From Betaproteobacteria bacterium (GTDB taxonomy: Bacteria > Pseudomonadota > Gammaproteobacteria > Burkholderiales > JAHFQX01), in the NCBI GenBank assembly GCA_023259135.1, contig JAHFQX010000007.1, positions 7,529-71,528 on the forward strand: DNA of 64,000 nt, in the 5' to 3' direction. Positions 5,531 through 64,000 of the stretch are shown piece by piece (the stretch's first letter is position 1; each line of letters begins with the position of its first letter). Below the pieces are notes generated by a model. It was not told the DNA's origin. It worked only from the letters and a program-made list of their open reading frames with translations, and did no database searches. The position numbers and the translations under genes were made by a program.

Positions 5531-5613
5531 ACTTTCCTCCCGAATTTTGAATGCGGAAGCTCCCCCGGCTTCCCGCTAATTTGAATTCTTGTCGCCCTGC
5601 TGGCGGGCCCGGC

Positions 5614-42682: not shown

Positions 42683-42759
42683 TGGCGCGCCCGGCAGGAT
42701 TCGAACCCACGACCCCCTGGTTCGTAGCCAGGTACTCTATCCAACTGAGCTACGGGCGC
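42683..42759 (-). tRNA. argV: tRNA-Arg (anticodon ACG)
   Basis: Minus strand GCGCCCGTAGCTCAGTTGGATAGAGTACCTGGCTACGAACCAGGGGGTCGTGGGTTCGAATCCTGCCGGGCGCGCCA. 7-bp acceptor stem, anticodon stem CCTGG/CCAGG with loop CTACGAA, T-loop GGTTCGAATCC, encoded CCA. Confidence 0.95.
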
Positions 42760-42792
42760 CCGATAAAGCCAAACCAACTTGAGACATCAAAC

Positions 42793-42885
42793 TGGCGGAG
42801 AGAGAGGGATTCGAACCCTCGATAGAGTTTTTGACCCTATACTCCCTTAGCAGGGGAGCGCCTTCGACCTCTCGGCCATCTCTCC
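42793..42885 (-). tRNA. serV: tRNA-Ser (anticodon GCU), long variable arm
   Basis: Minus strand GGAGAGATGGCCGAGAGGTCGAAGGCGCTCCCCTGCTAAGGGAGTATAGGGTCAAAAACTCTATCGAGGGTTCGAATCCCTCTCTCTCCGCCA. Anticodon loop CTGCTAA, long extra arm, T-loop GGTTCGAATCC, encoded CCA. Confidence 0.95.
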
Positions 42886-46521: not shown

Positions 46522-47310
46522 ATGCCCATTTTTGCCTGGATCATGGCCACCACCCTGCTGGGGGGGATACTCAGCGTATCGTGCGCCGCGGTGTTTGCCA
46601 TGGGAACCCGGCCTTCCCGAGTTCCCATGCTGATCAGCTACGCGGTGGGAGCCATGCTCGGAGCGGTATTCCTGGAAATCCTGCCCGAAGCCCTGGAGCG
46701 GGCGTCCAGCGTTCAGTCCATGGCCATGACCCTATTGGCCGGCATCATGCTGTTTTTCCTGCTGGAGAAATTCGTGCTCTGGCGTCATTGCCATGAACAG
46801 GACTGCGAGGCTCACGACCCCCCTGCCCACCCCCACTCGCCGTCTCCGGAAAACCATGCTTCCGCCGGAGCCATGATCCTGGTGGGGGATACTGTCCATA
46901 ATTTCGTGGATGGGATTATCGTTGCCGCCGCTTTTATGGCCGACGTGGAATTGGGAGTGGTGACGGCGCTGGCTATCATCGCCCATGAAATCCCGCAGGA
47001 AGTCGGAGATTTTCTGATCTTGCTGCATTCCGGCTACAGCCGCGGCCAGGCTCTGGCTTTCAATCTGCTTTCCAGTCTCGCCACGGTTCTCGGGGGCGGT
47101 CTGGCCTACTGGGCCTTGCAAGATGCCATGGCCTGGATTCCTAGCCTGCTGGGGCTGGCGGCGGCCTCCATGCTGTATGTGGCGGTGGCGGACTTGATCC
47201 CCGGACTGCACCGGCGCATCAATCTGGTCGCCACCCTGCAACAAAGCTCGCTCATCGCTTTGGGCATCGCCTCGATTTGGGGCATCGGTTTCTTGACGGG
47301 GCACCACTAA
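46522..47310 (+). CDS. ZIP-family divalent metal (zinc) transporter
   Basis: 262 aa, about 8 TM segments. His-rich loop HCHEQDCEAHDPPAHPHSPSPENH. ZIP signature HNFVDG and AHEIPQEVGDF. Confidence 0.8.
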   Translation: MPIFAWIMATTLLGGILSVSCAAVFAMGTRPSRVPMLISYAVGAMLGAVFLEILPEALERASSVQSMAMTLLAGIMLFFLLEKFVLWRHCHEQDCEAHDPPAHPHSPSPENHASAGAMILVGDTVHNFVDGIIVAAAFMADVELGVVTALAIIAHEIPQEVGDFLILLHSGYSRGQALAFNLLSSLATVLGGGLAYWALQDAMAWIPSLLGLAAASMLYVAVADLIPGLHRRINLVATLQQSSLIALGIASIWGIGFLTGHH

Positions 47311-47357
47311 GCTTCATTCATTTTCCGCGCCGCTATGGAAAAGGTATCCTTGCGGGG

Positions 47358-49100
47358 ATGGGATCCCCTTCCCTCATGAATTCCGCCCCCTTGCCTGACC
47401 CCGAGTTGGCCAAAGCCTGGCGGCAAGCCCAGGAGCGCTGGTTTTCCCATGGCTGGAGGGAGTTGCTGTCCAATACCCAGAATTCTGCCCTCTCCCGCGC
47501 CGGTTCCGGCTTTCTCGCGGGACTGGCCCGGCATCGAGAAAACTGGGAAGCCCTCGACCGGGATTACCGAACCCGGTGGGCGCAACTCTATGGCGATTTT
47601 CTGGAAGGCCGCCCCCTCCCGGACCCCGCCGCCGATCCCCGTTTCAAGGCTGAGCCGTGGCGAGAACTGCCCTATTTCCGCTTCCTGGCCGCGGCCTACC
47701 ATTTAACCGCCGAATGGCTGTGGGCCCTGGCGGAGTGCGCCCAGCCGCAAGGCCAAGAGCGGCAGCGGCTGTTTTTTTGGCTAGGGCAATGGATCGATGC
47801 CGCCGCCCCCGGCAATTTCCTCCCCACCAATCCGGAAGCTCTGGGGCTGGCCTTCGAGACCCAGGGAATCAGCCTGCGACGGGGCTTGGAGCAACTGGCG
47901 GAGGATTCCGCGGCCGGCCGTATTGCCCTGAGCGACCCGGCCGCCTTCCGGGTGGGGGAAAACCTCGCCGTCACTCCCGGAGCGGTGGTCTATCAAAATG
48001 ACCTGATCCAGTTGATCCAATACCGCCCCGCCACCCAATGGGTTTTCAAGCGCCCTTTGCTAATCGTGCCGCCGTTCATCAATAAATATTACATCCTCGA
48101 CCTGCAAGATCACGATTCCTTCGTGCGCTACGCCGTGGAGCAAGGCCACACGGTATTCATGATCTCCTGGCGCAATATCTCCCAAGGCCACGGGCACCAC
48201 ACCTGGGACGACTATCTTGAACACGGGGTCATGCAAGCCATCGAAGTCGCGTTGAAAATCGCCGGCACCCGCCGGCTCGACACCCTGGGGTTCTGCGTCG
48301 GCGGAACGCTGCTGGCCTGCGCCCTGGCGGTGCTGGCCGGCAAGCGGCGACAGTCCGCCGCCAGCTTGACGCTGTTGGCCTCGCTGCTGGATTTCTCCGA
48401 GCCGGGCCCCATCGGCGTCTACATAGACGAAGGCTTCGTCGCCGCCTGCGAAGCCGAATTCGGCAAAGGCGGCATCGTGCCGGGCAACCGTTTGGCCTGG
48501 GCCTTTTCCAGCCTGCGGGCCAGCGATCTGCTCTGGTCCCCGGCAATCCGCCGTTACCTCAAGGGCCAACCTTCTCCGGCTTTCGACCTCCTCCACTGGA
48601 ATGGGGATGCCGCCAACCTGTCGGGCCCGATGTACTGCTATTACCTGCGGAACCTGTATCTGGAAAACCGCCTCAGAGAGCACGGGACCCTGGCTATGAG
48701 CGGAGTCCCGCTGGATTTGCGGCAAGTCGCCTTGCCCACCTTCGTGCTGGCGGCCCGGGAAGACCATATTGTCCCGTGGACCTCGGCCTATGCCGGCGCC
48801 GCCCTGCTGGGAGGAGACAAGCAGTTCGTTCTGAGTTCCAGCGGCCATGTCGCCGGCGTCGTGAATCCTCCGGAAAACTCCAAGCGCGTTTACTGGACCG
48901 GGCAGAGTTTTTGCTTGAGTCCCCAGGCCTGGTGGGAGCAGGCCCGACAGCAGCAAGGTAGTTGGTGGCCTCATTGGAGCGGCTGGCTGAAACGGCAACA
49001 AGGTGGCAAACGCATTCCGGCCCGATGTATGCTCGGTAGCAGGCAATATCCGGAGCGGGAAATGGCGCCGGGCAGCTATGTGCTGCAGCGAGCCGAATAA
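47358..49100 (+). CDS. phaC: Class I poly(3-hydroxyalkanoate) synthase
   Basis: Track ORF 47277..49100 (overlaps the ZIP gene) trimmed to ATG 47358 (47376 also possible). PhaC N-domain, PPFINKYYILDL, lipase-box-like GFCVGGT, and a GH motif near the C-terminus. Confidence 0.85.
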   Translation: MGSPSLMNSAPLPDPELAKAWRQAQERWFSHGWRELLSNTQNSALSRAGSGFLAGLARHRENWEALDRDYRTRWAQLYGDFLEGRPLPDPAADPRFKAEPWRELPYFRFLAAAYHLTAEWLWALAECAQPQGQERQRLFFWLGQWIDAAAPGNFLPTNPEALGLAFETQGISLRRGLEQLAEDSAAGRIALSDPAAFRVGENLAVTPGAVVYQNDLIQLIQYRPATQWVFKRPLLIVPPFINKYYILDLQDHDSFVRYAVEQGHTVFMISWRNISQGHGHHTWDDYLEHGVMQAIEVALKIAGTRRLDTLGFCVGGTLLACALAVLAGKRRQSAASLTLLASLLDFSEPGPIGVYIDEGFVAACEAEFGKGGIVPGNRLAWAFSSLRASDLLWSPAIRRYLKGQPSPAFDLLHWNGDAANLSGPMYCYYLRNLYLENRLREHGTLAMSGVPLDLRQVALPTFVLAAREDHIVPWTSAYAGAALLGGDKQFVLSSSGHVAGVVNPPENSKRVYWTGQSFCLSPQAWWEQARQQQGSWWPHWSGWLKRQQGGKRIPARCMLGSRQYPEREMAPGSYVLQRAE

Positions 49101-49145: not shown

Positions 49146-49892
49146 ATGGAAAGAAAGCGCATTGCCCTGGTAACCGGGGGCATGGGGGGTATTGGCGAGC
49201 TGATCTGCAATCGGCTGTGGGACGCCGGTCACCGGGTCGTCGCCACCTATTCGCGGGATGACGAGCGGGCACGGAACTGGCAAGCCGGAAGACGGGTGCA
49301 TGGCTACGATATCGCCATCGCCAAGGTGGACGTGCGCGACTATGGATCCTGCGAAGCCATGGTCCGCGAGGCGACCCAAAAAGTGGGCCCGGTGGATATC
49401 CTGGTCAACAACGCCGGCATCACCCGGGACGCCACCTTCCTCAAAATGACCCGGGAAGATTGGGACGCCGTGCTGCGCACCAACCTGGACAGCATGTTCA
49501 ATGTCACCAAGCAAGTCATCGACGGCATGGTGGAACGAGGCTGGGGGCGAATCATCAACATCTCCTCGGTGAACGGCCAAAAGGGGGCATTCGGCCAGGC
49601 CAACTACTCCGCCGCCAAGGCCGGAATGCACGGCTTCACCAAAGCCTTGGCCTTGGAGGTCGCCAAGAAAGGGGTAACCGTCAACACCGTCTCCCCGGGC
49701 TATATCGGAACCGAGATGGTGCGGGCCATCCGCCCCGATATCCTGGAAAGCAAGATCCTCCCTCAAATCCCGGTGGGCCGGCTGGGCCAACCCGAGGAAG
49801 TGGCGGGACTTATCGTCTACTTGGCTTCCGAAGAAGCCGCTTTCGTGACCGGCGCCAATATCGCCATCAACGGCGGACAGCACATGTGCTGA
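49146..49892 (+). CDS. phaB: Acetoacetyl-CoA reductase
   Basis: 248 aa SDR. VTGGMGGIG, NNAGITRD, NYSAAKAG. Directly downstream of phaC. Confidence 0.85.
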   Translation: MERKRIALVTGGMGGIGELICNRLWDAGHRVVATYSRDDERARNWQAGRRVHGYDIAIAKVDVRDYGSCEAMVREATQKVGPVDILVNNAGITRDATFLKMTREDWDAVLRTNLDSMFNVTKQVIDGMVERGWGRIINISSVNGQKGAFGQANYSAAKAGMHGFTKALALEVAKKGVTVNTVSPGYIGTEMVRAIRPDILESKILPQIPVGRLGQPEEVAGLIVYLASEEAAFVTGANIAINGGQHMC

Positions 49893-50023: not shown

Positions 50024-52624
50024 ATGCGTTTCGACAAGCTCACCACCCGCTTCCAGCAAGCCTTGAGCGATGCTCAAAGCCATGCGGTCGGCCAGAGCCA
50101 TCCCGCCATTGAACCGCAACACCTGCTTTATGCCCTGCTCCAGCAGGATGACGGCGGTACCGCAGCGCTGTTAGAGCGGGCCGGAGTACGGGTTCCGGCC
50201 CTGAAGGGGGCTCTGCGGCGCAGCCTAGCCGATTTGCCGCGAGTCGAGCACCCGGGCGCCGAAATCGGCCTGTCCCGGACCTTGGCCGGACTCCTGAACC
50301 TGGCCGACCGCGAGGCGCAGCGCCGGGGAGACCGGTTCATTGCTTCCGAGTTATTTCTGCTGGCCTTGATTGATGACAAGGGGGATACCGGTCGCCTGCT
50401 GCGGGATGCCGGAGCTCGCCGCGATGCCCTGGAGCAGGCTATCGAAGCCGCCCGAGGCGGGCAAGCGGTAGAAAGCCCGGAAACCGAAAGCCAGCGGGAA
50501 GCCCTGCGACGCTATACCCTGGACCTCACGGAACGGGCCCGGGCTGGCAAGCTGGATCCGGTCATCGGACGGGACGACGAGATCCGCCGAGTAATCCAGA
50601 TCCTGCAACGGCGCACCAAAAACAACCCGGTGCTGATCGGCGAGCCCGGCGTGGGCAAAACCGCCATCGTCGAAGGACTGGCCCAGCGCATTGTCAACGG
50701 CGAAGTCCCCGAAACCCTCAAGAGCAAGCGGGTGCTGGTGCTGGATATGGCCGGCCTGCTGGCGGGGGCCAAGTACCGGGGCGAATTCGAGGAACGCCTC
50801 AAGTCCGTGCTCAAGGAAATCGCCCTGGAGGAAGGCCGGATGATCGTCTTCATCGACGAAATCCACACCATGGTCGGCGCCGGCAAGGCCGAGGGCGCCA
50901 TCGATGCCGGCAACATGCTCAAGCCCGCCTTGGCCCGGGGGGAGTTGCACTGCGTCGGCGCCACCACCCTGGACGAATACCGCAAATACATCGAGAAGGA
51001 CGCCGCCCTGGAGCGCCGCTTCCAAAAAGTGCTGGTGGACGAGCCCAGCGTGGAAAGCACCGTCGCCATCCTCAGGGGCTTACAGGAGAAATACGAGCTG
51101 CACCACGGAGTCGAGATCACCGATCCGGCCATCGTCGCCGCGGCCGAGTTGTCTCATCGCTACATCACCGATCGCTTCCTGCCGGACAAGGCCATCGACC
51201 TCATCGACGAAGCCGCCTCCCGCATCAAGATGGAGATCGACTCCAAGCCGGAAGCCATGGACAAGCTGGAACGCCGGCTGATCCAACTCAAGATCGAGCG
51301 GGAAGCCGTCAAGAAGGAAACCGACGAAGCCTCGAAAAAACGCCTGGAACTGCTAGAAGCCGAAATCCAGCGGCTGGAGCGGGAATATTCCGATCTGGAG
51401 ACCATCTGGAAAGCCGAGAAGGCCCAAGTGCAAGGCTCTCAGCACATCAAGGAAGAAATCGAGCGAATCCGGATCCAGATGGAGGAAGCTCGCCGCAAAG
51501 GCGATTGGCAGCAAATGTCGGAACTACAGTACGGCCGCCTGCCGCAACTGGAGGCGCAGCTTAAGGCAGCTTCCGAGGGTGAGGGAACACCCCGCCAATT
51601 CAAGCTGCTGCGCACTCAGGTGGGGGCCGAGGAGATCGCCGAAGTGGTTTCCCGCGCCACGGGCATTCCCGTCTCGAAAATGATGCAAGGGGAACAGGAC
51701 AAGCTGCTGAAGATGGAAGACCGCTTGCACCAGCGGGTGGTGGGGCAGGACGAAGCGGTACGGCTGGTGAGCAACGCCATCCGCCGCTCCCGCGCCGGGT
51801 TGGCGGACCCCCGGCGGCCCTACGGTTCATTCCTGTTCCTGGGTCCCACCGGGGTCGGCAAGACCGAGCTGTGCAAAGCCTTGGCCGAATTCCTGTTCGA
51901 TTCCGAGGAGCATATGGTCCGTATCGACATGTCGGAATTCATGGAAAAACATTCGGTGGCGCGCCTCATCGGCGCTCCGCCGGGCTACGTGGGCTACGAG
52001 GAAGGCGGTACCCTCACCGAGGCGGTGCGCCGCAAACCCTATTCCGTGATTCTGCTGGACGAAGTGGAAAAAGCCCATCCCGACGTATTCAACGTGCTGC
52101 TGCAAGTGCTGGACGACGGCCGGCTCACTGACGGCCAGGGCCGCACGGTGGACTTCAGGAACACGGCCATCGTGATGACCTCCAACCTCGGCTCGCAAAA
52201 CATCCAAGCCATGGCGGGGGATGACTACCAGGTCATCAAACTGGCCGTGATGGCGGAAGTAAAAAGCTATTTCCGCCCGGAATTCATCAATCGCATCGAT
52301 GAAATGGTGGTGTTTCACGCCTTGGGCCAAGAGCAGATTCGCGCCATCGCCCGAATTCAGATGAATGGGCTAAAGGCAAGGCTGGCGCGGATGGAAATCG
52401 GCTTCACCGCCACGGATGCCGCGTTGGACGAGCTGGCGACCGCCGGTTTCGACCCGGTGTACGGCGCCAGGCCGCTGAGGCGGGCCATCCAAAGCCAGTT
52501 GGAAAATCCCTTGGCCATGGCGATTCTGGAGGGACGCTTCGGTCCCAAGGATACGATCCAAGCCGACTGCCGGAATGGGGTCTTCGTGTTCGAGAAAGCC
52601 GCGGCTCAAGCCCTTCGGCCCTAG
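50024..52624 (+). CDS. clpB: Chaperone disaggregase ClpB
   Basis: 866 aa. Two AAA+ modules ([18 protein letters not shown]), long middle coiled coil, N-domain repeats. Confidence 0.95.
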
Positions 52625-52654
52625 CCACCTGGACGGCAGCGATGCGCCCGTTGC

Positions 52655-54904
52655 CTACCAGTATCTATACGACATCGATATGCCGATCAGGTTGATGGTG
52701 TAGTTGGGGGACAACTGTCCGGTAGTCATCACGTTGGCCAGGGTGTTCGGATTGACATTGTCGTATGCCCAATCGGCGATACGAAGGCTTTCATGTATCA
52801 AGCTAAGCTTGACAGATGAGTTTTTCTGAAGCTGGTAGTCTCCGTAAAGGTGCAGGCGATTGAGGCGCGACACCAAGTCGGGCATAGGCAACGCTCCGGG
52901 GAAAATCGTATTGATTTTTCCGGTGGCCTGGGAATAGACATAATCTCCCCCAAGGTCTAGCCGTCCCCCCACCTTCGCCATCTTGAAACCAAGGCCAATG
53001 GTATCTGCCCGATCATCGGAAGTGTTGTACCAATCGCTGGCGGAAACAACGGGCGTGGCTTGGGCCAACTTGGTGGCGGCTGTAAATGTCCTTCCCTTTT
53101 GGTCGGAAGCAAAGTTATCGTAGGTATAGAAAGCATAAATCGTCAGATTCTCCCTAGGCGCAATTGAGGCGTCCAGGGTGTAGCTTTGGCTCTTTGTCCC
53201 GGTCAGGCCGAGAATGGAGTTCTTGTAATCGTCCTGATTGTAGTCGGCGCTGAACTGCAGGGAAACCAATTCATGAGGAGAAGCGTTTACGGCAAGCCTC
53301 ACCTTGTCCCGATCGCGGTCTGCGTAAGTAAATTTCCGCAGCAGGGGATGGTTGTCGAACTGCGTGCCGGGAGCCAGGGTCGCGATGTATTGGGGAGAAT
53401 AACTGTTCAGGAACGGCACGTCCCGATATCCGGTGTTCTTCCGCTCCGAATGGGCGTAACTCAACCCGCCGCTGATGGTTTCCGCGAACCCGCGCCGCAG
53501 CCCGATACGGTAGGTGTGTTCACGCGTTTTGTCGACCTCGGCGAACGAACGCTCAATTTCTTCGTAATCGTAGCCGGCATTTAGCTTGGTGCGGGCCATG
53601 ATCGCGTAATCGGCGTCGAGCTTAAGCTGGTTTTGCTTGTAGCTGATCGGAAGATTGGTGCGTGCCCTGTCCGAGGCCAGGGTCACTGCCTGGTTCGTCG
53701 AATCTCCCCCGATGTACAGATATTGGGCTTGCGGCGTCTTGTTGTCACGGTCGTCATAGCGGTAAGAGGCCCGCAGATTGAGCTTGGGCAAGGGCCGCGT
53801 AGTCAAGACCAGGCTCAGCAGCGTGTTGTCGATCCGGCCATCCAGCGAGCCCCTGGGCAATGGCGTGGTGACCAGCAGCGCCGGGTTGACCGTATAGGGC
53901 AGGAACGCTTGATCCTGGGTCATCCGCCCGTACTGGAAATTTGCGGTCAACCGGGTGGTTTCCGTGAAGTTATAACCTCCGGACGCGATAATTTGATGGA
54001 ACTGATTATCCGGGGGGAGGCCGAGCTGGCCTTGCCCCGTCGGAAAACCGGCCGCCGGCGCCCATCCGGCTATGGCGGTGTACGGATTTTGCCAGACCAG
54101 CGAATTGTTCTGGTTGCTGAACAGCGACGCGTTATAGCCCAACTGGAACTGCGCCTTGGGAGTGGTATAAGCGAACGTGGCGTCGAATAAATTGGTTTCG
54201 TAATCAACCGGTTCTGGAATCAGCACCGATCTCGGATTGCCTCCGGAATTGCCAATCACCGCTCCGACGACCTTATTCCCCTCCTTGGTTTCATGTCGGA
54301 AATTGGCCTTGATCTCCCATTCTTGGGATAGGACCTTGGAAAATCCGAAGAAATAGTTTTTCCGCTCTTGCTCGACATCATAGCGCTTCAGATTCCCGGT
54401 CAACTGCGTCATCCCGGCCGTGGTTCCCGCCCCCACCCATCCCGCCGGAAGAGTGAGATTGGCGCTTCCTACTCCGTTGAAAACCGTCTGCGCCGATTCG
54501 GTCCGGAACTTCGCCAATTGATCGTATTCCAAGGAGAATCTGTAATTGCCCTGATCGCCGTATTCGTATTTCAGATTGCGGGATCTGAGGCCAAGATTGG
54601 TCCCGCTTAAAGTCCAATAGGTGGTAACGCCGCTGAGGGGAGCGCCCCGGCTCGTCAAATTTATATTGCCGATAAGATACGCGCCCTCATCCTTGAAACC
54701 CGAGTACTCCCCGAACTTGAACGAATCCCCGCTCACATTCGCGATGCCTATCTCGATTTCGTTTGGCTTGCGCGTCAAATCCCGGATCGTCTCGTCCTCT
54801 TGAGCGAGGCTAACCCCTGGCAGCAACGTCAACACCATGGTCGCGTATAGCGTTTTCGCAGAGCAAGAAGCCGTATTGCGGCGGTTAATCGTCTTCGTTT
54901 TCAT
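52655..54904 (-). CDS. MtrB/PioB/MtoB-family outer-membrane porin (decahaem-associated beta-barrel)
   Basis: 749 aa. Signal peptide ending LLPGVSLAQE. Alternating-residue beta-strand pattern rich in Y/G/N/D throughout. Terminal aromatic ...ISMSYRYW. Directly follows a decahaem cytochrome gene (38-nt gap), the defining context of the family. No N-terminal CxxC. Confidence 0.75.
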   Translation of the reverse strand: MKTKTINRRNTASCSAKTLYATMVLTLLPGVSLAQEDETIRDLTRKPNEIEIGIANVSGDSFKFGEYSGFKDEGAYLIGNINLTSRGAPLSGVTTYWTLSGTNLGLRSRNLKYEYGDQGNYRFSLEYDQLAKFRTESAQTVFNGVGSANLTLPAGWVGAGTTAGMTQLTGNLKRYDVEQERKNYFFGFSKVLSQEWEIKANFRHETKEGNKVVGAVIGNSGGNPRSVLIPEPVDYETNLFDATFAYTTPKAQFQLGYNASLFSNQNNSLVWQNPYTAIAGWAPAAGFPTGQGQLGLPPDNQFHQIIASGGYNFTETTRLTANFQYGRMTQDQAFLPYTVNPALLVTTPLPRGSLDGRIDNTLLSLVLTTRPLPKLNLRASYRYDDRDNKTPQAQYLYIGGDSTNQAVTLASDRARTNLPISYKQNQLKLDADYAIMARTKLNAGYDYEEIERSFAEVDKTREHTYRIGLRRGFAETISGGLSYAHSERKNTGYRDVPFLNSYSPQYIATLAPGTQFDNHPLLRKFTYADRDRDKVRLAVNASPHELVSLQFSADYNQDDYKNSILGLTGTKSQSYTLDASIAPRENLTIYAFYTYDNFASDQKGRTFTAATKLAQATPVVSASDWYNTSDDRADTIGLGFKMAKVGGRLDLGGDYVYSQATGKINTIFPGALPMPDLVSRLNRLHLYGDYQLQKNSSVKLSLIHESLRIADWAYDNVNPNTLANVMTTGQLSPNYTINLIGISMSYRYW

Positions 54905-54942
54905 ATCGGACCTCGACTACGTTGACTACGTTGCGAGCGCCA

Positions 54943-55905
54943 TCAGCGGGTTTTCCGCGGGCCGGAGGGATGATTCGAACCATGCACCTGCGAGTGGCAA
55001 TTCAGACAGTTGTTGGCAAGCAACTGCTGTGCCGCTCCAACCGGAGGAACCCCGGTTCCACTGTACGCGGTACTGGGATGGAACTGGGCCAAATGGCATT
55101 CCTGGCACAACCAAGGCCCCCGAACCTTCAAAAGTGGCGTATGAATCGACCCATGGGGAACATGGCAGTTGGTGCAGTCCTCACGCACCGGCGGGTGCTC
55201 CCACAAGAAGGGGCCGCGTTTTTCGGCATGGCATGTGTAGCACGTTTCGTTAACCGTCGCCTTGGCCAACTGCTTGGGTCCCGGCGAGCCGTGGGGGTTG
55301 TGGCATTGGGAACAGGTCACTTTGCCATCCTTGACCGGATGGGCCGACGGCTTGAGTATCTGGGAGCGCTGTTCCTTGTGGCAGGCAAAGCAGACTTCCG
55401 GCTGGCTGCTCTTAGCCAGAACCTTGTCTTTCCCGGTATGAACTTGATGGCAGGCGACGCACGGCACATCCCCCGATTGGTGCTGACTACCCTGCCAAGC
55501 CATCCTGAGTCCAGACTGATGGCAGGTCAGGCAGGGCTTATTCTGACTATTCGCGGGGGTGTCCGACTTCTTGCCAAAAACACGCTCTGGCTTAGGCCGT
55601 TCCTTTACCCCCTCCGGCTTGTTAATGTGAGTGTCGCTTTCTCCGTGGCAACTGGTGCAGGTCGGAGTACGGGCATCGCCCGTTACCCCATGCCGGGTTT
55701 TGGCGATGGACAATACCGGATATTCCTCGGTCTCGTCATGGCAGCGGGTGCATTTGGCGTCGCCCTTGAGGACCCTATCCTTGCGAGGCTCTTTGGCCTG
55801 CTCTCCGGCGGAACCGGATTCCGCTCCAAACGCTCCCGCGGAAAGGCCCAAGGCCACGACGGCACCCCACAGTATCGCGGCCATGGAGCATCTGTATCGT
55901 TTCAT
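54943..55905 (-). CDS. Periplasmic decahaem c-type cytochrome, MtrA/MtoA/PioA family
   Basis: Track start 55914 is GTG; ATG 55905 lies 8 nt after AGGGAGG. Signal peptide ...ALGLSAGAFGA. Ten CxxCH motifs: CTRCH, CTSCH, CLTCH, CVACH, CFACH, CSQCH, CYTCH, CTNCH, CQECH, CLNCH in about 320 aa. Confidence 0.85.
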   Translation of the reverse strand: MKRYRCSMAAILWGAVVALGLSAGAFGAESGSAGEQAKEPRKDRVLKGDAKCTRCHDETEEYPVLSIAKTRHGVTGDARTPTCTSCHGESDTHINKPEGVKERPKPERVFGKKSDTPANSQNKPCLTCHQSGLRMAWQGSQHQSGDVPCVACHQVHTGKDKVLAKSSQPEVCFACHKEQRSQILKPSAHPVKDGKVTCSQCHNPHGSPGPKQLAKATVNETCYTCHAEKRGPFLWEHPPVREDCTNCHVPHGSIHTPLLKVRGPWLCQECHLAQFHPSTAYSGTGVPPVGAAQQLLANNCLNCHSQVHGSNHPSGPRKTR

Positions 55906-55990
55906 GAAGGGCACCTCCCTAAAGACTACCCAAAACTATTATTAGTAAAGGGGCGGCGAATCCCTACCCCAGGCTTGGCCTTTTCCAGCG

Positions 55991-56584
55991 CTACAATTTC
56001 AGTTCCTGCGGTCCCGGACCTTCCGGTTCCTTGTGCGCAATGCCGAAGTGACAGTCTATGCAGGTCTTGCCTTCGGCCTTTCCCTTGGCGTGCCGGTTCT
56101 TGCTCTTTTCGGTCTGCTTGTCGGGGTCCCACGAGTCGTCGTGGTGGCAATTACGGCACTCCAGCGAGTCGGTCTGCTTCATGCGGGTCCACACCCGCTT
56201 GGCGAGCGTGTAGCGGTGGGACTCGAACTTCTCCTGGGTGTCCACCACGCCGGTGAAATGACCCCACAACTCGAATGTAGCCCGCATCTTGCGCAGAATC
56301 AGAGGACCCGGCTGGCGTGGCACGTGGCAATCGGAACAGATGGCGCGCACCCCGGTGCGGTTCTTGTCGTGAATCGTGTCCTTGTATTCGGCATAGACGT
56401 TATCGCGCATCTCGTGACAACCGATGCAGAATTCCTCCGTGTTGGTCCAGGCCAGCCCCGCGGCGCCGGCGGTTACCAGCGCCACGGTCAGGAACACTAC
56501 GGCGACGGCAACCCCTATCACCAGCCTTACCCGCGAGCATATAGTGCAACGACGGGTTAGCGCTTCCCATACCTTTTTAATCAC
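55991..56584 (-). CDS. Membrane-anchored tetrahaem cytochrome c, NapC/NirT/CymA family (quinol dehydrogenase type)
   Basis: Both candidate starts are GTG (56617 from the track; 56584 preceded by GGGGGGAAG). One N-terminal TM helix LVIGVAVAVVFLTVALVTAGAAGL, then four CxxCH motifs: CIGCH, CSDCH, CRNCH, CIDCH. Confidence 0.8.
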   Translation of the reverse strand: MIKKVWEALTRRCTICSRVRLVIGVAVAVVFLTVALVTAGAAGLAWTNTEEFCIGCHEMRDNVYAEYKDTIHDKNRTGVRAICSDCHVPRQPGPLILRKMRATFELWGHFTGVVDTQEKFESHRYTLAKRVWTRMKQTDSLECRNCHHDDSWDPDKQTEKSKNRHAKGKAEGKTCIDCHFGIAHKEPEGPGPQELKL

Positions 56585-56621
56585 TGTCTTCCCCCCAGCT
56601 TCCCGCCACAGGCTCACGCCT

Positions 56622-56960
56622 TCAGCGTGACAGAATCCATTGGATAACGTTCTGGATATCCGCTTCGTTCTTGGTCTTCAGGGAATCGTGCTCTTCCTCT
56701 TTGCCGTCCACCTTGACCTTGGGATTGGTGGTCAGGTGGGTATAAAGTTTCTTTTCGGCATCTGGCTTGCCTTTGAGCTTGGCGGCGGTTTCCTTGTAGG
56801 GAGGTCCTTCCTTTTTCTTGTCCACCGAATGGCACTTGAAACAACCGCTCTTTTTCATCAAGGATTCCGCGGCGCCCGCATCAAGGGCCATTGCGGATGG
56901 CGCAAAGCCCAACCCGACAAACAGTACCAACCCCCTTACTCCTGGACTTCCCGTATCCAT
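56622..56960 (-). CDS. Secreted monohaem class I c-type cytochrome (MtoD-like position)
   Basis: 112 aa. Signal peptide LVLFVGLGFAPSAMA. Single CFKCH haem site. Lys-rich small soluble domain. First gene of the cytochrome operon. Confidence 0.75.
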   Translation of the reverse strand: MDTGSPGVRGLVLFVGLGFAPSAMALDAGAAESLMKKSGCFKCHSVDKKKEGPPYKETAAKLKGKPDAEKKLYTHLTTNPKVKVDGKEEEHDSLKTKNEADIQNVIQWILSR

Positions 56961-57227
56961 AACCTAATCCCCTCATTCGGGCATGATAATCGCGTTTTCG
57001 AGTTTGCTCCTTGCACGGCCGGCCCCAATAGCTTGATTCACAAATCATGTTAGCATGAAAATATAACTCAATAAGGAGAACTTTTTCTGCTTTGGTGACT
57101 TGGCTCAAAAAACAGCCAAAATCCAAGCTGTGGGGTACCGGCCTGCACCTCCTGATGCCGCAGTTTATATCCATTGAAGCCAACCGGGAAATCCTCACGA
57201 TCCCGACGGCTTTGAGCATCCAAGGCG
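56961..57227 (-). promoter_or_regulatory. AT-richer 267-nt upstream region of the cytochrome operon (promoter region, motifs unconfirmed)
   Basis: The only sizeable gap in this part of the window and visibly less GC-rich than its surroundings. Candidate motifs are listed in the findings. None is strong. Confidence 0.4.
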
Positions 57228-58013
57228 TCACCATCCCCCGAACGACAAGCCCCCGTTGACGCTGACGGTCTGGCCGGACACCTGGGCCGCCTGGTCGGAA
57301 GCCAGGAAGGCCGCCACTTCGGCAACCTCCTCGGCGGTCGGCGCCCGGCCCAGGGGGAAACGGCTCAATGCCTTGCTGAACAGCTTATTCTCGAAACTCG
57401 GCTTGCTGAATATCTCATCGTAGCGGGGCGTATCCGAGGTGAGCGTCAAGGCCACGCAATTGACCCGTATTTTCCAGCGGGAAAATTCCCGGGCCAGGGC
57501 CTTGGTCATGAGAATGGTCGCGGCCCCGACGCTGCCGATCAGGGATTCTCCCGGCGTGGGATGACGGCCGGCATCGGTGGTGATCAGCACGATGGAGCCC
57601 CGCTGCCGCTCCCGCATGCCGGGGAGCGCCGCATGAACGGGAAAGACCCGCGGCAGGTAGCGGGTCTCGAAAGCTTTCAGGAAATCCTCGGGCTTTAACT
57701 CATGGAACGGCGTCGGGCCGGGCTTCTCCGACCCGCCGCTGCTCACCAGGATGTCGATGGGGCCGAGACGCCGCGCCACGGCGGTCACCACCCGGCTGAT
57801 TTCATCGTAGCGGGCGGCGCTGCCGGCCTCAAAGATGAACTCGGCGCCGGTATGGGCCAAACGATTCATCGCATCTTCTCCGGCCGCCGCTTGGCGCCCG
57901 TTCAGCGCCACCCGGGCGCCTCGCTTGGCCAGTGCCTCGGCGATGCGAAAACCGATGCCGCTGGTGGAGCCCGTTACCAGCGCTACTTTCCCTTGCAAAT
58001 CCTGCTTGTCCAT
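57228..58013 (-). CDS. SDR-fold protein lacking the canonical catalytic Ser-Tyr-Lys
   Basis: Track ORF 57228..58475 trimmed to ATG 58013 (MDKQDLQGKVALVTGSTSGIG). Rossmann/TGxxxGxG motif intact. The catalytic region reads ITTDAGRHPTPGESLIGSVGAATILMTKAL where the in-window FabG has [30 protein letters not shown]. Confidence 0.7.
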   Translation of the reverse strand: MDKQDLQGKVALVTGSTSGIGFRIAEALAKRGARVALNGRQAAAGEDAMNRLAHTGAEFIFEAGSAARYDEISRVVTAVARRLGPIDILVSSGGSEKPGPTPFHELKPEDFLKAFETRYLPRVFPVHAALPGMRERQRGSIVLITTDAGRHPTPGESLIGSVGAATILMTKALAREFSRWKIRVNCVALTLTSDTPRYDEIFSKPSFENKLFSKALSRFPLGRAPTAEEVAEVAAFLASDQAAQVSGQTVSVNGGLSFGGW

Positions 58014-58054
58014 GATTCCTCCTGGTGCTTTTTTAATAACGGCAATCCGGAGCA

Positions 58055-58468
58055 TCACTCCGGTTCGGTAAACCGCATCAATCCGGAGCGCAACGAATCG
58101 GGGATGGGTATGGCTTGCTCGGCCCGAATGTCCACCGTCACCATGACGATATGGCCCGTCACCGCGGCTTCCTGCTCCCCATCCCGAATCAGCTCGAATT
58201 CCATGCGGATAGAGCTGTTGCCCAAATGTCCGATCCACGCCCGCACCACGCCCCGGTCGTGAACCTTGAGGGGATGGCGGTAGTCGGCTTCGAGGTGGGC
58301 ACGGGGAAGGCCATAGCCTTCTTGTATTATGGCGTAGCCGGTAAACCCGGCCTCGCGGAACAACCGGGCTTCGGCCTGGGCCACATAATGAAACACCGCC
58401 GCGTAATAGACCCAACCCGAAGGGTCGGAGTCTCCAAACAACACCTCGAAGGGCACTTCCAGCTTCAT
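58055..58468 (-). CDS. Hotdog-fold acyl-CoA thioesterase (4HBT/YbgC-like)
   Basis: Track ORF 58055..58663 trimmed to ATG 58468 (ATGA overlap with the upstream ligase stop). MKLEVPFEVLFGDSDPSGWVYYAAVFHY carries the N-terminal catalytic Asp context. 137 aa. Confidence 0.7.
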   Translation of the reverse strand: MKLEVPFEVLFGDSDPSGWVYYAAVFHYVAQAEARLFREAGFTGYAIIQEGYGLPRAHLEADYRHPLKVHDRGVVRAWIGHLGNSSIRMEFELIRDGEQEAAVTGHIVMVTVDIRAEQAIPIPDSLRSGLMRFTEPE

Positions 58469-59982
58469 GACCCATGTTCTTTCATGTCGAGCACCATTTT
58501 CTTGAGCTTCTCCTTCATCACCCGGCCGCTCAGGTTGCGGGGCAGCTCGGCAGCGAACATCACCCGCCGGGGGCGCTTGTAGCGGGCCAAGCCGGCCTCG
58601 GCAAAACCCATCAATTCCCCGGCATTCGCCTGCCGGCCGGGCTTGAGAACGACGACCGCGCAAATCAGCTCAGTCCACTCGGGGTCCGGCAGGCCGATGC
58701 AGGCCGCTTCCGCCACCGCCGGGTGGGAAGCCAGAACCTCTTCCACTTCCGGCGCGTAGACATTGATCCCCCCGCTCTTGATCACATCCCGCTTGCGGCC
58801 GACGAAATAAAGATAGCCGTCGGCATCGAAGCGGCCCAAGTCCCCCACAGTGAAGAACTCACCCCGCCGGGTACTGTCCGTCAACTCCGGATCGTTGTAA
58901 TAGCCTTCGTATTGGAACGAACTGCGGGCGCAGATTTCCCCCACCTCTCCCACGGCCACTTCCTTGCCGTCGTCGTCCAGCAGGCGAACTTCCACTCCAA
59001 AGAATACCGTCCCGATGCAATTGCCCTCGGCATATCGCAGCACCGCGTCGCCCTTTAGATTGGCGTAGGGCCCCACCTCGGTGGAGGCGGCGTAGATGCT
59101 GAGCACCGGGCCGGCCTTGGCAAACCAGGCTTGCCGCAAATCCGCCTCCACCGCCCCGCCGCCCGATTGAATGAGCCGCAGCGAGCGCCCGGAAAAATCC
59201 TGGAACGCCGGAGATTCCATCATTCGGCGCAGCAAAGGCGGAAACATCATGGCGGCGGTAATCTTTTCCTTGTCGATCAAGGCTAGGGTCCGCTCCGCAT
59301 CGAAGGATTCCATGAGGTAAACCGTCGCCCCCAGGTATAGCGGCAGCATGGCGTAGCCGAAGCCCGCCGACAGGCACAGCGGCATCACGCAAAGGGTGCG
59401 GTCCTCGGTGGCAAAGCCCTGCTCGATGGCCCGTTCCTCGAAACCCCATTTTTCCCGTAGGGTGCCTTTCGGGCGGGAAGTGGTGCCGGAGGTGTGGAGC
59501 ATGATGAGGGCCCGCGATTCTCGGAGATCGGCCTCGGCATCGCTCGCGGCGGCCAGGCGCTCCGGCAACGAAAGCACACGTCCGCCCTCCCCGGCTTGCA
59601 AGGCATCCAGGCAATACACTTGCTCCACTCGGCCGGCGAAGCGTTCCCCGTGGGCCAAATGATGGCGGTCCACCAGCAGGGCGCGGCTGTGGGAGTGAGT
59701 CAGGATATGCAGCATGTCATCGTCGGACAGCCGGTAATTCACCGGCACCGGAACGGCCCCGAAGCCCATCAGGGCAAAATACGCGGTGATGAAATCCGGA
59801 TGATTCAACGCCAGGATCGCCACCTTGTCGTCGCGGCCATAGCCCGCCTGGCGCAATGCGTTCATCATCCCGCAAACGCGGCGATACAGCTCCGCATAGC
59901 TCCAGGACGATTCGCCAAAGCACAGCGCCGGCTTGGCGGGAAAGCGCCGGGCGTTGAGCCGCAGCGCCTCGGTGAAGGTCAT
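58465..59982 (-). CDS. AMP-forming acyl-CoA synthetase / ligase (class I adenylate-forming)
   Basis: Track ORF 58465..60417 trimmed to ATG 59982 (MTFTEALRLNARRFPAKPAL). AMP-binding box LHTSGTTSRPKG, YGSTE-like AASTEVG, TVGDLG, GRKRDVIKSGGINV, C-terminal Lys GRVMK. Confidence 0.85.
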   Translation of the reverse strand: MTFTEALRLNARRFPAKPALCFGESSWSYAELYRRVCGMMNALRQAGYGRDDKVAILALNHPDFITAYFALMGFGAVPVPVNYRLSDDDMLHILTHSHSRALLVDRHHLAHGERFAGRVEQVYCLDALQAGEGGRVLSLPERLAAASDAEADLRESRALIMLHTSGTTSRPKGTLREKWGFEERAIEQGFATEDRTLCVMPLCLSAGFGYAMLPLYLGATVYLMESFDAERTLALIDKEKITAAMMFPPLLRRMMESPAFQDFSGRSLRLIQSGGGAVEADLRQAWFAKAGPVLSIYAASTEVGPYANLKGDAVLRYAEGNCIGTVFFGVEVRLLDDDGKEVAVGEVGEICARSSFQYEGYYNDPELTDSTRRGEFFTVGDLGRFDADGYLYFVGRKRDVIKSGGINVYAPEVEEVLASHPAVAEAACIGLPDPEWTELICAVVVLKPGRQANAGELMGFAEAGLARYKRPRRVMFAAELPRNLSGRVMKEKLKKMVLDMKEHGS

Positions 59983-59995
59983 GGCCGCGGAAGCC

Positions 59996-61150
59996 TCATT
60001 CGAAGGCCGACATGCCGAGAATCTCACGGCCGATGATGAGCGTCTGCACTTCCGAAGTCCCCTCGGGAATGATGCCGCCGCGGGTGTCGCGGAAAATCCG
60101 TTCGATGGGGTAATCCTTGCTGTAGCCCATGCCGCCATGGACTTGCAGGGCATGATTGGCGACCTCGAAGGCGGACTCGGTGGCAACCTTCTTGGCGATG
60201 GAGCATTCCATGCGCGCCGGCTTGCCTCGGTCGAGGGCCGCCGCCGCCCGGAAACCCAGCCAGCGGGCAGCCTCGGTGAGACATTGCATCTCCACGATGT
60301 GCTGCTGCACCAGTTGGAAGCTGCCGATGGGCCGGCCGAACTGCTTGCGATCCTTGGCGTAGCGGATGGATAGATCCAGCGCCGCCTGGGCTGCCCCCAC
60401 CGCCCCCATGGAAACATTCAGCCGGCCGTAATTGAGGCCGGTGAGAATCAGCTTGAGGCCCTCCCCCACTTTGCCCAGCACGTTTTCCTTAGGCACCGCC
60501 ACGTCCTCGAACACCAGTTCGGAGGTCGCCGTGGATTGCAGGATCATGGTATGCACTCGCCGGCCCGAATACTGGGCCTGCTCCCGCTCCACCAGAAAGG
60601 CCGTAATGCCGCCGGGATGGCTGTCAGTAGGGGTCACCTTGGCCATGAGAATGCCGAAGTCGGCCCAGATGCCGTTGGTGATCCACAACTTGGTGCCGTT
60701 GATGAGGTAATGGTCGCCTTTGTCCACCGCCCGGGTTTCCATTCCCGCCACGTTGGAGCCGTGGTTGGGTTCGGTGATGCCGACGAAGAAGCGCTTCTTG
60801 CACTCCAACAGCGGCTTGAGGAAGCGCTCCCGCTGGGCCGGCGTGGCGTGGGTATGCAGCAGGCTGGCGGCGATGTTCACGGTATTGAGCACCACCCGCA
60901 TGCTCAGCCAATGATAGCCCGCCAGTTCCATCAGCACCGCCCAACTGACGTAGTCCATGCCAAAGCCGCCGGCCTGCTCGGGCAGCAACCCACCGATGTA
61001 GCCGAATTGCTTGAGCTTGGGCAGCAGCTCCCAGGCGAATTCCCCGCGGCGCTCGTGGTCGGCGACGATGGGGTCCACCTCCTGGGCCAGAAAACGGCTT
61101 ACGGTTTCCCGAAGTATGTTCTGTTCGTCGGTCAGTTCGAAATCCACCAT
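59996..61150 (-). CDS. Acyl-CoA dehydrogenase (canonical C-terminal catalytic Glu type)
   Basis: 384 aa. GITEPNHGSN, WITNG, GLNYGRL, RKQFGRPI, IIPEGTSEVQ (Glu base at the MCAD/SCAD position). Confidence 0.85.
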   Translation of the reverse strand: MVDFELTDEQNILRETVSRFLAQEVDPIVADHERRGEFAWELLPKLKQFGYIGGLLPEQAGGFGMDYVSWAVLMELAGYHWLSMRVVLNTVNIAASLLHTHATPAQRERFLKPLLECKKRFFVGITEPNHGSNVAGMETRAVDKGDHYLINGTKLWITNGIWADFGILMAKVTPTDSHPGGITAFLVEREQAQYSGRRVHTMILQSTATSELVFEDVAVPKENVLGKVGEGLKLILTGLNYGRLNVSMGAVGAAQAALDLSIRYAKDRKQFGRPIGSFQLVQQHIVEMQCLTEAARWLGFRAAAALDRGKPARMECSIAKKVATESAFEVANHALQVHGGMGYSKDYPIERIFRDTRGGIIPEGTSEVQTLIIGREILGMSAFE

Positions 61151-61177
61151 GGCGACTTCCTCCTCAACAGGTCCCGT

Positions 61178-62344
61178 TCAATAGGATTTGGGCAGCCCCA
61201 ACACCTTCTCGGCGATAAAACACTTGATCAGTTGCGGACTGATCGGGGCGATCCAATGGATCAGCACTTCCCGCAGATAGCGTTCCACGTGGTACTCCTT
61301 GGCATAGCCGAAGCCGCCGTGGGTCAGCACCGCGGTCTCGCAAGCCTTTACCGCGGCCATGGAGGCCAGGTATTTGGCGGCGTTGGCCTCCGCCCCGCAG
61401 GGCTCGCCCCGGTCGTACAGGCTGGCGGCCTTGAAGGCCATCAGATTGGCGGCTTCCAGTTCCATCCAATTCTCGGCCAGCGGGTGCTGCACTCCCTGAT
61501 TCATGCCGATGGGTCGGTCGAATACGATCCGTTGCTTGGCGTATTGGGCGGCGCGCTTCAGCGCGACCCGGCCGATGCCCACCAATCCGGCGGCGATCAA
61601 AATCCGTTCCGGATTCAAGCCGTGGAGAATGCAGTGGAAACCCTTGCCTTCCTCGCCGATGCGATCCTCGACGGGAACCGGCAGGCCGTCGATGAACAGC
61701 TCGTTGGAATCCACCGCTTTGCGGCCCATCTTCTCGATCTCCCGCACCGTGACATAGCGCCGGTCGATGTCGGTATAGAACAACGATAATCCATCGGTGG
61801 GGCGCTTGACCTCGTCCAGGGGGGTGGTGCGAGCCAGGATCAGCATTTTTTCCGACACCTGGGCGGTGGTGATCCAGACCTTGCGGCCGCTCAGTATATA
61901 CCGATCGCCATCCCGCACCGCACGGGTCTTGAGCTTCAGGGTATCCAAACCGGTATTGGGCTCGGTCACGGCGAAGGCGGCCTTGACCTTCCCTTCGATG
62001 AGGGGCGGCAGAATGCGCCGCCTTTGCTCTTCGGTTCCGAACTTCACCACCACGTTGGGGGCAAACACATTGATGGATATGGCCGAACCCCCGCTCAGGC
62101 CGGCGCCGCTTTCGGTCACCGCCTGGGACAGAATTGCCCCCTCGGTAATACCCAATCCGGAGCCGCCGTATTCCTGGGGCATGGCAATACCCAGCCAGCC
62201 GTCCTTGGCCAGCGCTTGGTGCAACTCCACCGGGAAGCCGCCTTCCCGATCCTTTTTGAGCCAATAGTCGTCGTCGAATTGGCTGCAAATCTTTAAGATA
62301 GCTTCCCGGATAGCCTGCCGCTCGGGGGAGAATTCGAAGTCCAT
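61178..62344 (-). CDS. Acyl-CoA dehydrogenase-family protein, tandem paralogue 2
   Basis: 388 aa. AVTEPNTGLDT, VWITT, GLNPERI, IVFDRPIG, ends ...IAPISPQLIKCFIAEKVLGLPKSY. Same length as the next gene upstream and largely identical to it. Confidence 0.85.
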   Translation of the reverse strand: MDFEFSPERQAIREAILKICSQFDDDYWLKKDREGGFPVELHQALAKDGWLGIAMPQEYGGSGLGITEGAILSQAVTESGAGLSGGSAISINVFAPNVVVKFGTEEQRRRILPPLIEGKVKAAFAVTEPNTGLDTLKLKTRAVRDGDRYILSGRKVWITTAQVSEKMLILARTTPLDEVKRPTDGLSLFYTDIDRRYVTVREIEKMGRKAVDSNELFIDGLPVPVEDRIGEEGKGFHCILHGLNPERILIAAGLVGIGRVALKRAAQYAKQRIVFDRPIGMNQGVQHPLAENWMELEAANLMAFKAASLYDRGEPCGAEANAAKYLASMAAVKACETAVLTHGGFGYAKEYHVERYLREVLIHWIAPISPQLIKCFIAEKVLGLPKSY

Positions 62345-62353
62345 GGCGGTCCC

Positions 62354-63520: not shown

Positions 63521-63549
63521 GTTGATTTCCTCCTCGGGAAAATGGGCCC

Positions 63550-64000
63550 TCAGCCGTAACGGCCGCCGGTGATATGCAAGGTCTCGCCGCTGATGTAGCC
63601 GGCCCGCTCGGACGCCAGGAAGCACACTCCGGCGGCGATATCGTCGGGCTCTCCGACGCGGGGCACGGGGGTGGCGGCAATGGCCTTGGCGGCGATTTTT
63701 TCGTAATGGGGCAAGGATTCCACCAGCTCGGTCTTGATGAAGCCCGGGGCGATGGCATTGACGGTGATGTTGAACTTACCGGATTCCAAGGACAGCGCCC
63801 GGGTCAGCCCGATGACCCCCGCCTTGGCGGCGGAGTAGTTGGCTTGGCCGGGGTTCCCCAAGTGGGCTCGGGAGGAAATGTTGATGATCCGTCCGAACTT
63901 CTGGGCGATCATGTAGGGAATCGCCGCCCGGGAGCACAGGAAGGTGCCTTTCAGAATCACGTCGATAACGCTGGTCCAATCCTCGTCGGACATCTTGGTA
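63550..64000 (-). CDS. SDR-family oxidoreductase (FabG-like), C-terminal part; gene starts beyond the right edge
   Basis: Track ORF 63550..63993 begins at an internal Met. The reading frame stays open to the window edge. Canonical IINISS...NYSAAKAG...APGFI. Confidence 0.8.
   Translation of the reverse strand, partial: TKMSDEDWTSVIDVILKGTFLCSRAAIPYMIAQKFGRIINISSRAHLGNPGQANYSAAKAGVIGLTRALSLESGKFNITVNAIAPGFIKTELVESLPHYEKIAAKAIAATPVPRVGEPDDIAAGVCFLASERAGYISGETLHITGGRYG

Follow-up and report, generated by a model that had tools for sequence, protein, structure and literature searches.

A 64-kb stretch of contig JAHFQX010000007.1 from an uncultured Betaproteobacteria bacterium, referred to here as the window, carries four co-directional minus-strand genes that fill positions 52655-56960. 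To judge from the predicted proteins, the locus is almost certainly an Mto-type porin-cytochrome conduit operon of the MtrAB/PioAB/MtoAB family. In gene order, its features are:

56622-56960, minus strand: mtoD-like gene for a predicted secreted class-I monohaem cytochrome c (112 residues, one CxxCH motif, CFKCH)
55991-56617, minus strand: cymA/imoA-like gene for a predicted membrane-anchored NapC/NirT tetrahaem cytochrome (208 residues from a GTG start, four CxxCH motifs)
54943-55905, minus strand: mtoA-like gene for a predicted periplasmic or outer-membrane-inserted decahaem cytochrome (320 residues, ten CxxCH motifs)
52655-54904, minus strand: mtoB-like gene for a predicted MtrB/PioB-family outer-membrane beta-barrel (749 residues, PF11854 and TIGR03509)

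All four open reading frames (ORFs) are intact and have complete motif sets. The gaps between them are 4, 85, and 38 nucleotides in gene order, in agreement with the range of 4-85 nucleotides given in a preliminary description of this DNA, and Shine-Dalgarno-like sequences lie ahead of the gene starts. Two of the starts can be placed differently. The tetrahaem gene may begin at GTG 56617, giving 208 residues and a 4-nucleotide gap, or at GTG 56584, giving 197 residues and a 37-nucleotide gap; the latter codon has GGGGGGAAG ahead of it, and both starts have been called in public records of identical contigs, the one at 56584 on several of them. The ATG start of the decahaem gene (320 residues) is preceded by AGGGAGG, while the mechanical ORF from GTG 55914 has 323 residues and would shorten the second gap to 76 nucleotides. 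No minus-strand terminator-like site is predicted inside the operon when positions 52400-57400 are scanned. The guanine-plus-cytosine (GC) content of the operon is 0.565, compared with 0.593 for the window.

The four proteins were also compared with those of related loci. When one genome per species was scanned, relatives of the decahaem protein turned up in at least 593 genomes. The 80 best of these went into a survey in which the ORFs of each locus were searched with the four window proteins and their CxxCH motifs were counted. An ORF was recorded only when it contained a CxxCH motif or resembled a window protein; dmsAB genes would go undetected in such a survey. Surveyed loci are given below by L numbers where they need to be told apart.

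The first gene of the operon probably encodes an MtoD-type class-I cytochrome with bis-histidine haem ligation. The protein matches the Pfam family Cytochrom_C at 5.9e-7, and its best match in the PDB is 4XXL_A, MtoD of Sideroxydans lithotrophicus ES-1 (E=3.3e-24, about 49% identity). The haem ligands of MtoD are His47 and His95 (PMC4412085). The assignment is made because H44 and H91 of the window protein align with these two ligands, because the window protein has no Met residue C-terminal to its CxxCH motif, and because the distal His is kept in 65 of the 66 monohaem homologues that adjoin mtoAB. The N-terminus, judged by eye, resembles a signal peptide (...APSAMA, followed by LD).

The second protein has the haem motifs CIGCH, CSDCH, CRNCH, and CIDCH, one N-terminal stretch of strong hydrophobicity (residues 32-50), and a match to PF03264 (NapC/NirT) at 213.8 bits (1.9e-63). 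Its scores fall under the equivalog cutoffs for NapC, NirT, and TorC (TIGR02161, 223.7 bits against a cutoff of 310.6; NF007906, the NapC model, 202.7 against 349; the TorC models likewise), and it is therefore placed, at the level of sequence, in a separate NapC/NirT subfamily outside the nitrate or trimethylamine N-oxide reductase systems. A search of the PDB with this protein returned no meaningful match. None of the 43 tetrahaem homologues adjoining mtoAB departs from the motif CxxCHEM (CIGCHEM in the window) or from any of the four haem motifs, and the CxxCHxM feature has also been described for NrfH and for a model of the ES-1 CymA (PMC10654088). The protein thus carries the motif of a quinol site and is a predicted partner of the quinone pool. 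An N-terminal CTIC was considered as a further conserved feature and rejected, being present in 7 of the 43 homologues.

The third protein has exactly ten CxxCH motifs and the features of its family: it is predicted to be secreted, falls within the expected length of about 300-350 residues, and scores above the cutoff of the profile TIGR03508 (287.3 bits against 192.2), so that the profile search proposed in the preliminary description came out in favour of a decahaem of this family. It also matches MtrA in the PDB (6R2Q_A, E=1.1e-78, residues 46-316). Among decahaems it is closest to MtoA-type proteins from Betaproteobacteria, not to MtrA of Shewanella; its identity is 78% with the homologue in a Usitatibacteraceae genome and 52% with the one in a Sideroxydans metagenome-assembled genome (MAG). 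An identical decahaem protein (P0001) is encoded on 15 public contigs from several assemblies with matching neighbours, and the same gene set surrounds it wherever the metagenome contig reaches far enough.

The gene for the fourth protein starts 38 nucleotides downstream of the decahaem gene, and the two genes are paired in 80 of 80 related loci. The 749-residue product had been expected to belong to the MtrB/PioB family, and it does: it matches PF11854 (MtrB_PioB) at 592 bits (cutoff 23; 2.1e-177), with residues 58-747 aligned to positions 3-634 of the 635-position profile, and TIGR03509 at 550.7 bits against a cutoff of 240. In the PDB it matches 6R2Q_B, MtrB of the Shewanella baltica MtrCAB complex (E=2.7e-61, query 101-747 on chain 101-694), so the homology to the solved 26-strand MtrB, as far as the alignment goes, spans the barrel region. 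The protein ends in ...SYRYW and contains a single Cys. A CxxC motif is absent from the whole 749-residue sequence; the lack of the N-terminal one of MtrB had been observed in the preliminary description.

Clustered and co-directional genes for MtoD-, CymA/ImoA-, MtoA-, and MtoB-type proteins are therefore all found at this locus, and the strong profile matches, well above anything expected by chance, and the PDB matches bear out the protein identities and the Mtr/Mto/Pio-type reading first proposed for it. The closest relative in the survey, L007 from Usitatibacteraceae, shares 69, 67, 78, and 64% identity with the window proteins in operon order, and the ES-1-type cluster of a Sideroxydans MAG shares 49, 54, 52, and 27%; the 54% refers to the NapC-like protein of that cluster.

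Is the order of the four genes unusual? The preliminary description called it non-canonical, in contrast to the order mtoD-mtoA-mtoB-cymA in ES-1. The ES-1 order is given correctly there (PMC13390432, PMC10654088), and the frequency of the four-gene order, for which a survey had been proposed, speaks against the rest of the claim. The order of the window (MtoD-like, NapC-like, decahaem, barrel) is found in 19 of the 80 loci, the closest relatives among species genomes, and that of ES-1 (MtoD-like, decahaem, barrel, NapC-like) in 18. The hosts of the former include Usitatibacteraceae, a Thiobacillus MAG, Burkholderiales MAGs, Azoarcus sp. Aa7, Steroidobacteraceae, and Motiliproteus. A cymA gene adjoining mtoA and mtoB had also been known earlier in Azoarcus tolulyticus (PMC6295460). 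Since 19 of 80 relatives share the order and a cymA beside mtoA and mtoB was known before, the gene order of the window differs from that of the model organism, yet is not unusual.

The loci with the ES-1 order (L016, L024, L030-L033, L035, L038, L040, L046, L050, L052, L056, L057, L062, L063, L068, and L083) include two Sideroxydans MAGs. A PmcA-like extra monohaem gene after the NapC-like gene was found in none of the 18, and PmcA does not seem to be a conserved part of the Mto module. An MtoD-like gene accompanies mtoAB in 59 of the 80 loci. About seven loci have instead an 8-9-haem cytochrome fused to a cytochrome b561-like domain (MtoC type), and in 11 the decahaem-barrel pair stands alone, in some cases at contig ends. 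In L015 (5700-6917) and L048 (around 5758), the MtoD-like gene is replaced by a gene for a single-CxxCH protein of about 365-405 residues, located between the NapC-like and decahaem genes; the L015 protein has a PF09459 (ethylbenzene-dehydrogenase-like) domain. L047, from a Usitatibacter sp. MAG, has two tandem decahaem-barrel pairs behind one MtoD-like gene (805-6950), as if the conduit had been duplicated locally.

When the decahaem proteins are placed in a neighbour-joining tree with one MtrA outgroup, the window protein pairs with that of L007 in 100 of 100 bootstraps. A clade of 23 taxa with the Sideroxydans loci has no member with the window order (78% support), and the orders are interleaved elsewhere in the tree. 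In the window, 193 nucleotides separate the stop codon of the MtoD-like gene from the first haem codon of the NapC-like gene; the same distance lies between 153 and 212 nucleotides in 18 of the 19 window-order loci, the remaining one being L008 with 275 nucleotides. This range means that the mtoD-like and NapC-like genes are consistently juxtaposed in the loci with the window order.

A few of the 80 loci carry an MtrC/MtrF-like decahaem. In two Motiliproteus loci, such a gene follows the barrel gene (L069, 10130-12403; L070, 9992-12262), and in L069 it stands directly after the four genes in the window-type order. In L058, an MtrC-like gene (4192-6681) lies ahead of the decahaem gene. The same core module thus occurs with or without a surface cytochrome. 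No MtrC/OmcA-type surface decahaem is encoded in the 64-kb window, as had been stated before. The window is equally devoid of a PmcA-like cytochrome and of further c-type cytochrome genes, and a gene for a high-potential iron-sulfur protein (HiPIP) is found neither in the operon nor in the window. Three small single-CxxCH ORFs elsewhere in the window match no cytochrome family and were discarded as spurious.

Upstream of the first gene, two features bear on the expression of the operon:

56961-57111, minus strand: AT-rich candidate leader and promoter region of the operon, with a degenerate FNR/FixK-like box (a weak assignment)
57112-57131, minus strand: terminator-like hairpin followed by a T-run, which would end the upstream block of short-chain dehydrogenase/reductase (SDR) and acyl-CoA genes and divide it from the operon

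The hairpin, read from 57131 to 57112, is the sole minus-strand terminator-like site within 52400-57400. Because it sits just after the upstream SDR gene, the four genes are likely to have a leader of their own. The intergenic region 56961-57227 has a GC content of 0.48, compared with 0.59 for the window. The degenerate box, TTGAGCCAAGTCAC at 57095-57108, keeps TTGA-N6-TCA and is not an exact TTGAY-N4-RTCAA. The only CRP-type match in the leader has two mismatches and is this same box. No sigma-70 consensus was found in the leader, and a motif scan of it gave neither a Fur match nor a consistent sigma-54 match nor an exact FNR box. No alignment was obtained between this leader and that of L007, the closest relative.

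Many of the related clusters differ from the window in this respect. Of 76 related loci, 17 have exact TTGAY-N4-RTCAA boxes in the 300 nucleotides ahead of the first gene of the cluster, where about 1.1 would be expected from the background of the rest of the same loci; this is an enrichment of approximately 15-fold (Poisson P of about 8e-15). The boxes lie 65-254 nucleotides upstream (L007, L009, L011, L014, L018, L020, L021, L026, L028, L030, L035, L045, L051, L052, L056, L083, and L084), and nine of the 17 loci have the gene order of the window. In the literature searched, no paper linking mtoA with FNR was found. The pio operon of Rhodopseudomonas palustris TIE-1 is reportedly regulated by FixK, a result ascribed to Bose and Newman in 2011. 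The boxes suggest that the family of related clusters is under low-oxygen control by FNR/FixK/Anr-type regulators; they do not settle the direction of electron flow.

What surrounds the operon? The clpB gene lies directly after the barrel gene and is convergent with the operon; the best named matches of the window ClpB are 80-82% identical and come from Burkholderiales MAGs, Pelomicrobium, Rhodocyclaceae, and Nitrosovibrio. Beyond clpB, two genes of polyhydroxyalkanoate (PHA) metabolism are found:

47277-49100, opposite strand to the operon: phaC, with a PhaC_N domain
49146-49892, opposite strand to the operon: phaB-like SDR gene

The preliminary description placed these genes upstream and took them as a pointer to lithotrophy. 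The genes are real, but in transcriptional terms they are downstream, 2.8-3.6 kb past the operon's 3' end and on the other strand. As evidence for lithotrophy they were rejected: they are unlinked housekeeping neighbours beyond clpB, and within the flanks compared no flanking gene recurs beside the module in four relatives. The rest of the window is likewise housekeeping (a fab cluster, rpmF, plsX, enolase, CTP synthase, Lon, phosphoenolpyruvate synthase, and aspartate kinase). Directly upstream of the operon, a minus-strand block at 57228-63625 encodes three acyl-CoA dehydrogenases, an AMP-dependent ligase, a 4HBT thioesterase, and SDRs; it resembles a cluster for the degradation of acyl-CoA or aromatic acids and is absent beside the relatives of the operon. 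Genes for tRNA-Arg(ACG) and tRNA-Ser(GCT) lie at 42683-42885 on the minus strand beside aspartate kinase, about 10 kb from the operon and with no integrase nearby, and were for that reason not taken to mark the edge of an island.

Within the flanks compared, only the four operon genes are common to the window and the loci L007, L008, L011, and L025. As the flanks are not syntenic with these four relatives, the operon is, on comparative grounds, a portable module, and the differing flanks fit the modular and mobile behaviour described for mtr clusters (PMC8805035). A genomic island or recent transfer was also considered and rejected: no tRNA, integrase, or transposase gene was found at the operon borders, the dip in GC content is small (0.565 against 0.593), and a recent transfer is unproven.

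How does the operon compare with known extracellular electron conduits? The Mto cluster of ES-1 (slit_2494-2498) comprises pmcA, imoA/cymA, mtoB, mtoA, and mtoD, and shares with the window an MtoD of the bis-histidine type, a tetrahaem cytochrome with CxxCHxM, a decahaem MtoA, a barrel without CxxC, and the lack of a clustered MtrC (PMC13390432). The two differ in order, which is mtoD-cymA-mtoA-mtoB in the window and mtoD-mtoA-mtoB-imoA-pmcA in ES-1, and in PmcA, a cytochrome with His/Met ligation and a potential of -143 mV that is part of the ES-1 cluster and has no counterpart in the window. The barrels of the window and of the Sideroxydans-type cluster are only about 27% identical, and the host of the window, unlike ES-1, is not an iron oxidiser of the Gallionellaceae. 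Among the cymA-mtoA-mtoB clusters of other Betaproteobacteria and Gammaproteobacteria, the Usitatibacteraceae locus L007, the Thiobacillus MAG locus L008, and the Azoarcus sp. Aa7 locus L036 have exactly the same four genes in the same order and with mtoD and cymA tightly spaced. Their flanking genes differ from those of the window, and none of the window-order relatives has been characterised experimentally.

Shewanella uses MtrCAB together with CymA (6R2Q). MtrA and MtrB are homologous to the decahaem and barrel proteins of the window, and both systems use a tetrahaem cytochrome of the NapC/NirT family. By contrast, Shewanella has MtrC/OmcA and the N-terminal CxxC of the barrel, both of which the window lacks; its quinol dehydrogenase gene is not clustered with the conduit, as it is in the window; and its periplasmic carriers are the tetrahaem CctA/FccA instead of a monohaem protein of the MtoD type. 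The mtoABCD clusters of Gallionella capsiferriformans ES-2 and Dechloromonas aromatica RCB have the MtoD-like, MtoA, and MtoB core in common with the window (PMC5566968), and L044, L061, and L074 are comparable loci in the survey. Their inner-membrane partner is MtoC, with 8-9 haems and a cytochrome b561-like domain, whereas that of the window is the NapC/NirT tetrahaem protein. PioABC of R. palustris TIE-1 resembles the window in having a decahaem and a barrel without a surface cytochrome, and serves electron uptake (PMC8805035). Its carrier is the HiPIP PioC and its operon has no quinone-linked cytochrome, in contrast to the c-type cytochrome and tetrahaem protein of the window. PioA has a long N-terminal extension that the 320-residue decahaem lacks.

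By analogy with the solved MtrAB complex, the decahaem chain would be threaded through the barrel and would carry electrons across the outer membrane. The tetrahaem protein would exchange electrons with the quinone pool, as proposed by comparison with the ES-1 Mto proteins and MtrAB, and the monohaem protein could act as a soluble carrier in the periplasm. The conduit would run mainly inward, with extracellular Fe(II), Fe(II) minerals, or other external reductants being oxidised at low oxygen. The best explanation of the locus as a whole, and a reasonably probable one, is an Mto-type conduit operon whose assembly is judged by homology and which works mainly inward. Electron uptake taken by itself is mildly favoured. 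Three things tip the balance towards uptake: no MtrC is encoded in the window, the relatives are of the Mto type, and the carrier is a cytochrome of the bis-histidine MtoD type. MtoAB of ES-1 oxidises Fe(II) and magnetite (PMC12016527), and in Sideroxydans CL21 mtoD and cymA/imoA are upregulated when iron oxidation is possible (PMC12442390). Low-oxygen expression would agree with the enrichment of FNR/FixK-type boxes ahead of related clusters.

Several observations weigh against a mainly inward conduit. Genes for CO2 fixation or Cyc2 are not visible in the 64-kb window, its other genes are only of the heterotrophic housekeeping type (fatty-acid synthesis, acyl-CoA dehydrogenases, and PHA synthesis), and the exact FNR box of the relatives is missing from its leader. 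A Shewanella mtrA mutant regains Fe(III) reduction in part when supplied with MtoA (PMC7005843), ImoA is a quinol oxidase when expressed in Shewanella (PMC13390432), and MtoA and PioA form no function-specific clades (PMC8805035, PMC10734462). The direction of electron flow is not readable from sequence, a caveat of the preliminary description that these three results uphold. Its claim of a complete electron path fares less well. In a 2026 study of ES-1, PmcA, the His/Met monohaem cytochrome encoded at the end of the cluster, interacted with ImoA and MtoA, while MtoD (+155 mV) interacted with neither (PMC13390432). The window has the MtoD type and lacks PmcA, the cytochrome with which ImoA and MtoA interact in ES-1. 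For this reason, a complete path that includes the periplasmic step is plausible by analogy and yet unproven.

The main alternative to uptake is outward flow, in which the NapC-like protein would oxidise quinol and pass electrons through the monohaem and decahaem proteins to soluble or chelated Fe(III), humics, Mn(IV), or a partner organism. The conduit would then serve a heterotroph lacking MtrC, either for anaerobic respiration or for redox balancing. This is a real but lesser possibility. CymA and ImoA are both quinol oxidases in Shewanella, MtoD and PmcA can both ferry electrons from CymA to MtrA in vivo (PMC13390432), and the rescue of the mtrA mutant by MtoA (PMC7005843) points the same way. 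The heterotrophic context of the window, with its beta-oxidation-type and PHA genes, would suit such a role, the FNR-type boxes of related clusters fit anaerobic respiration too, and in the Motiliproteus locus L069 the four-gene module is followed by an MtrC/MtrF-like decahaem. However, mineral reducers typically have an MtrC/OmcA-type gene beside mtrAB (PMC7005843, PMC8805035), and the window has none; the potential of ES-1 MtoD, +155 mV (PMC4412085), is unfavourable for reducing a decahaem chain that spans about +100 to -400 mV (PMC13390432); and the nearest relatives of the operon are of the Mto type.

Two further explanations carry little weight beside these. The best NCBIfam model for the decahaem, TIGR03508, is named 'DmsE family', and public annotations follow it, which could indicate a DmsEF-type conduit that feeds an extracellular terminal reductase, such as dimethyl sulfoxide reductase, and not metals. 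This is very improbable: the model operates at the subfamily level, and the window protein also matches the solved MtrA (E=1.1e-78). The Pfam annotations, which cover most of the window, contain no molybdopterin oxidoreductase of the dmsA/dmsB type, and the recurring haem partners in the 80 loci are MtoD-, NapC-, MtoC-, or MtrC-like, in a survey that is blind to dmsAB. The DmsE reading was therefore rejected as far as the window allows, there being no dms genes and the NCBIfam name being a subfamily label. Less credible still is the idea that the four genes are not one unit, having come together by chance or surviving as a decayed and unexpressed remnant. The missing sigma-70 consensus promoter and the lack of the relatives' exact FNR-type box would agree with it. 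Against this stand the four intact ORFs with complete motif sets, the recurrence of the identical decahaem and its gene set in several independent metagenome assemblies, the preservation of the order in 19 species genomes despite differing flanks, and the spacing of 153-212 nucleotides from the mtoD stop to the NapC haem codon in 18 of 19 loci (275 nucleotides in L008).

A bolder interpretation, which we regard as rather unlikely, is that mtoD-cymA-mtoA-mtoB is a functionally distinct and self-sufficient variant of Mto. The bis-histidine cytochrome of the MtoD type would be the dedicated partner of the CymA/ImoA-type protein, and the module would link the quinone pool reversibly to external iron or humics. 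It would serve mostly heterotrophic, PHA-storing Betaproteobacteria under low-oxygen control of the FNR/FixK type. This interpretation is prompted by the mtoD and cymA genes, which abut in all 19 window-order loci, and by the lack of PmcA. If true, such a variant would depart from the ES-1 model, in which MtoD is thought to bypass ImoA.

The operon is real, intact, and ordinary, and the gene order proposed as its novelty is not new. What it offers is modest and lies in comparison: two orders, about equally common, exist among Mto modules that have a CymA/ImoA-type cytochrome in the cluster. The distribution of MtoD and PmcA among the related loci, together with the FNR-type boxes, bears on which periplasmic carrier connects MtoA with the inner membrane and on the conditions under which such conduits are expressed.

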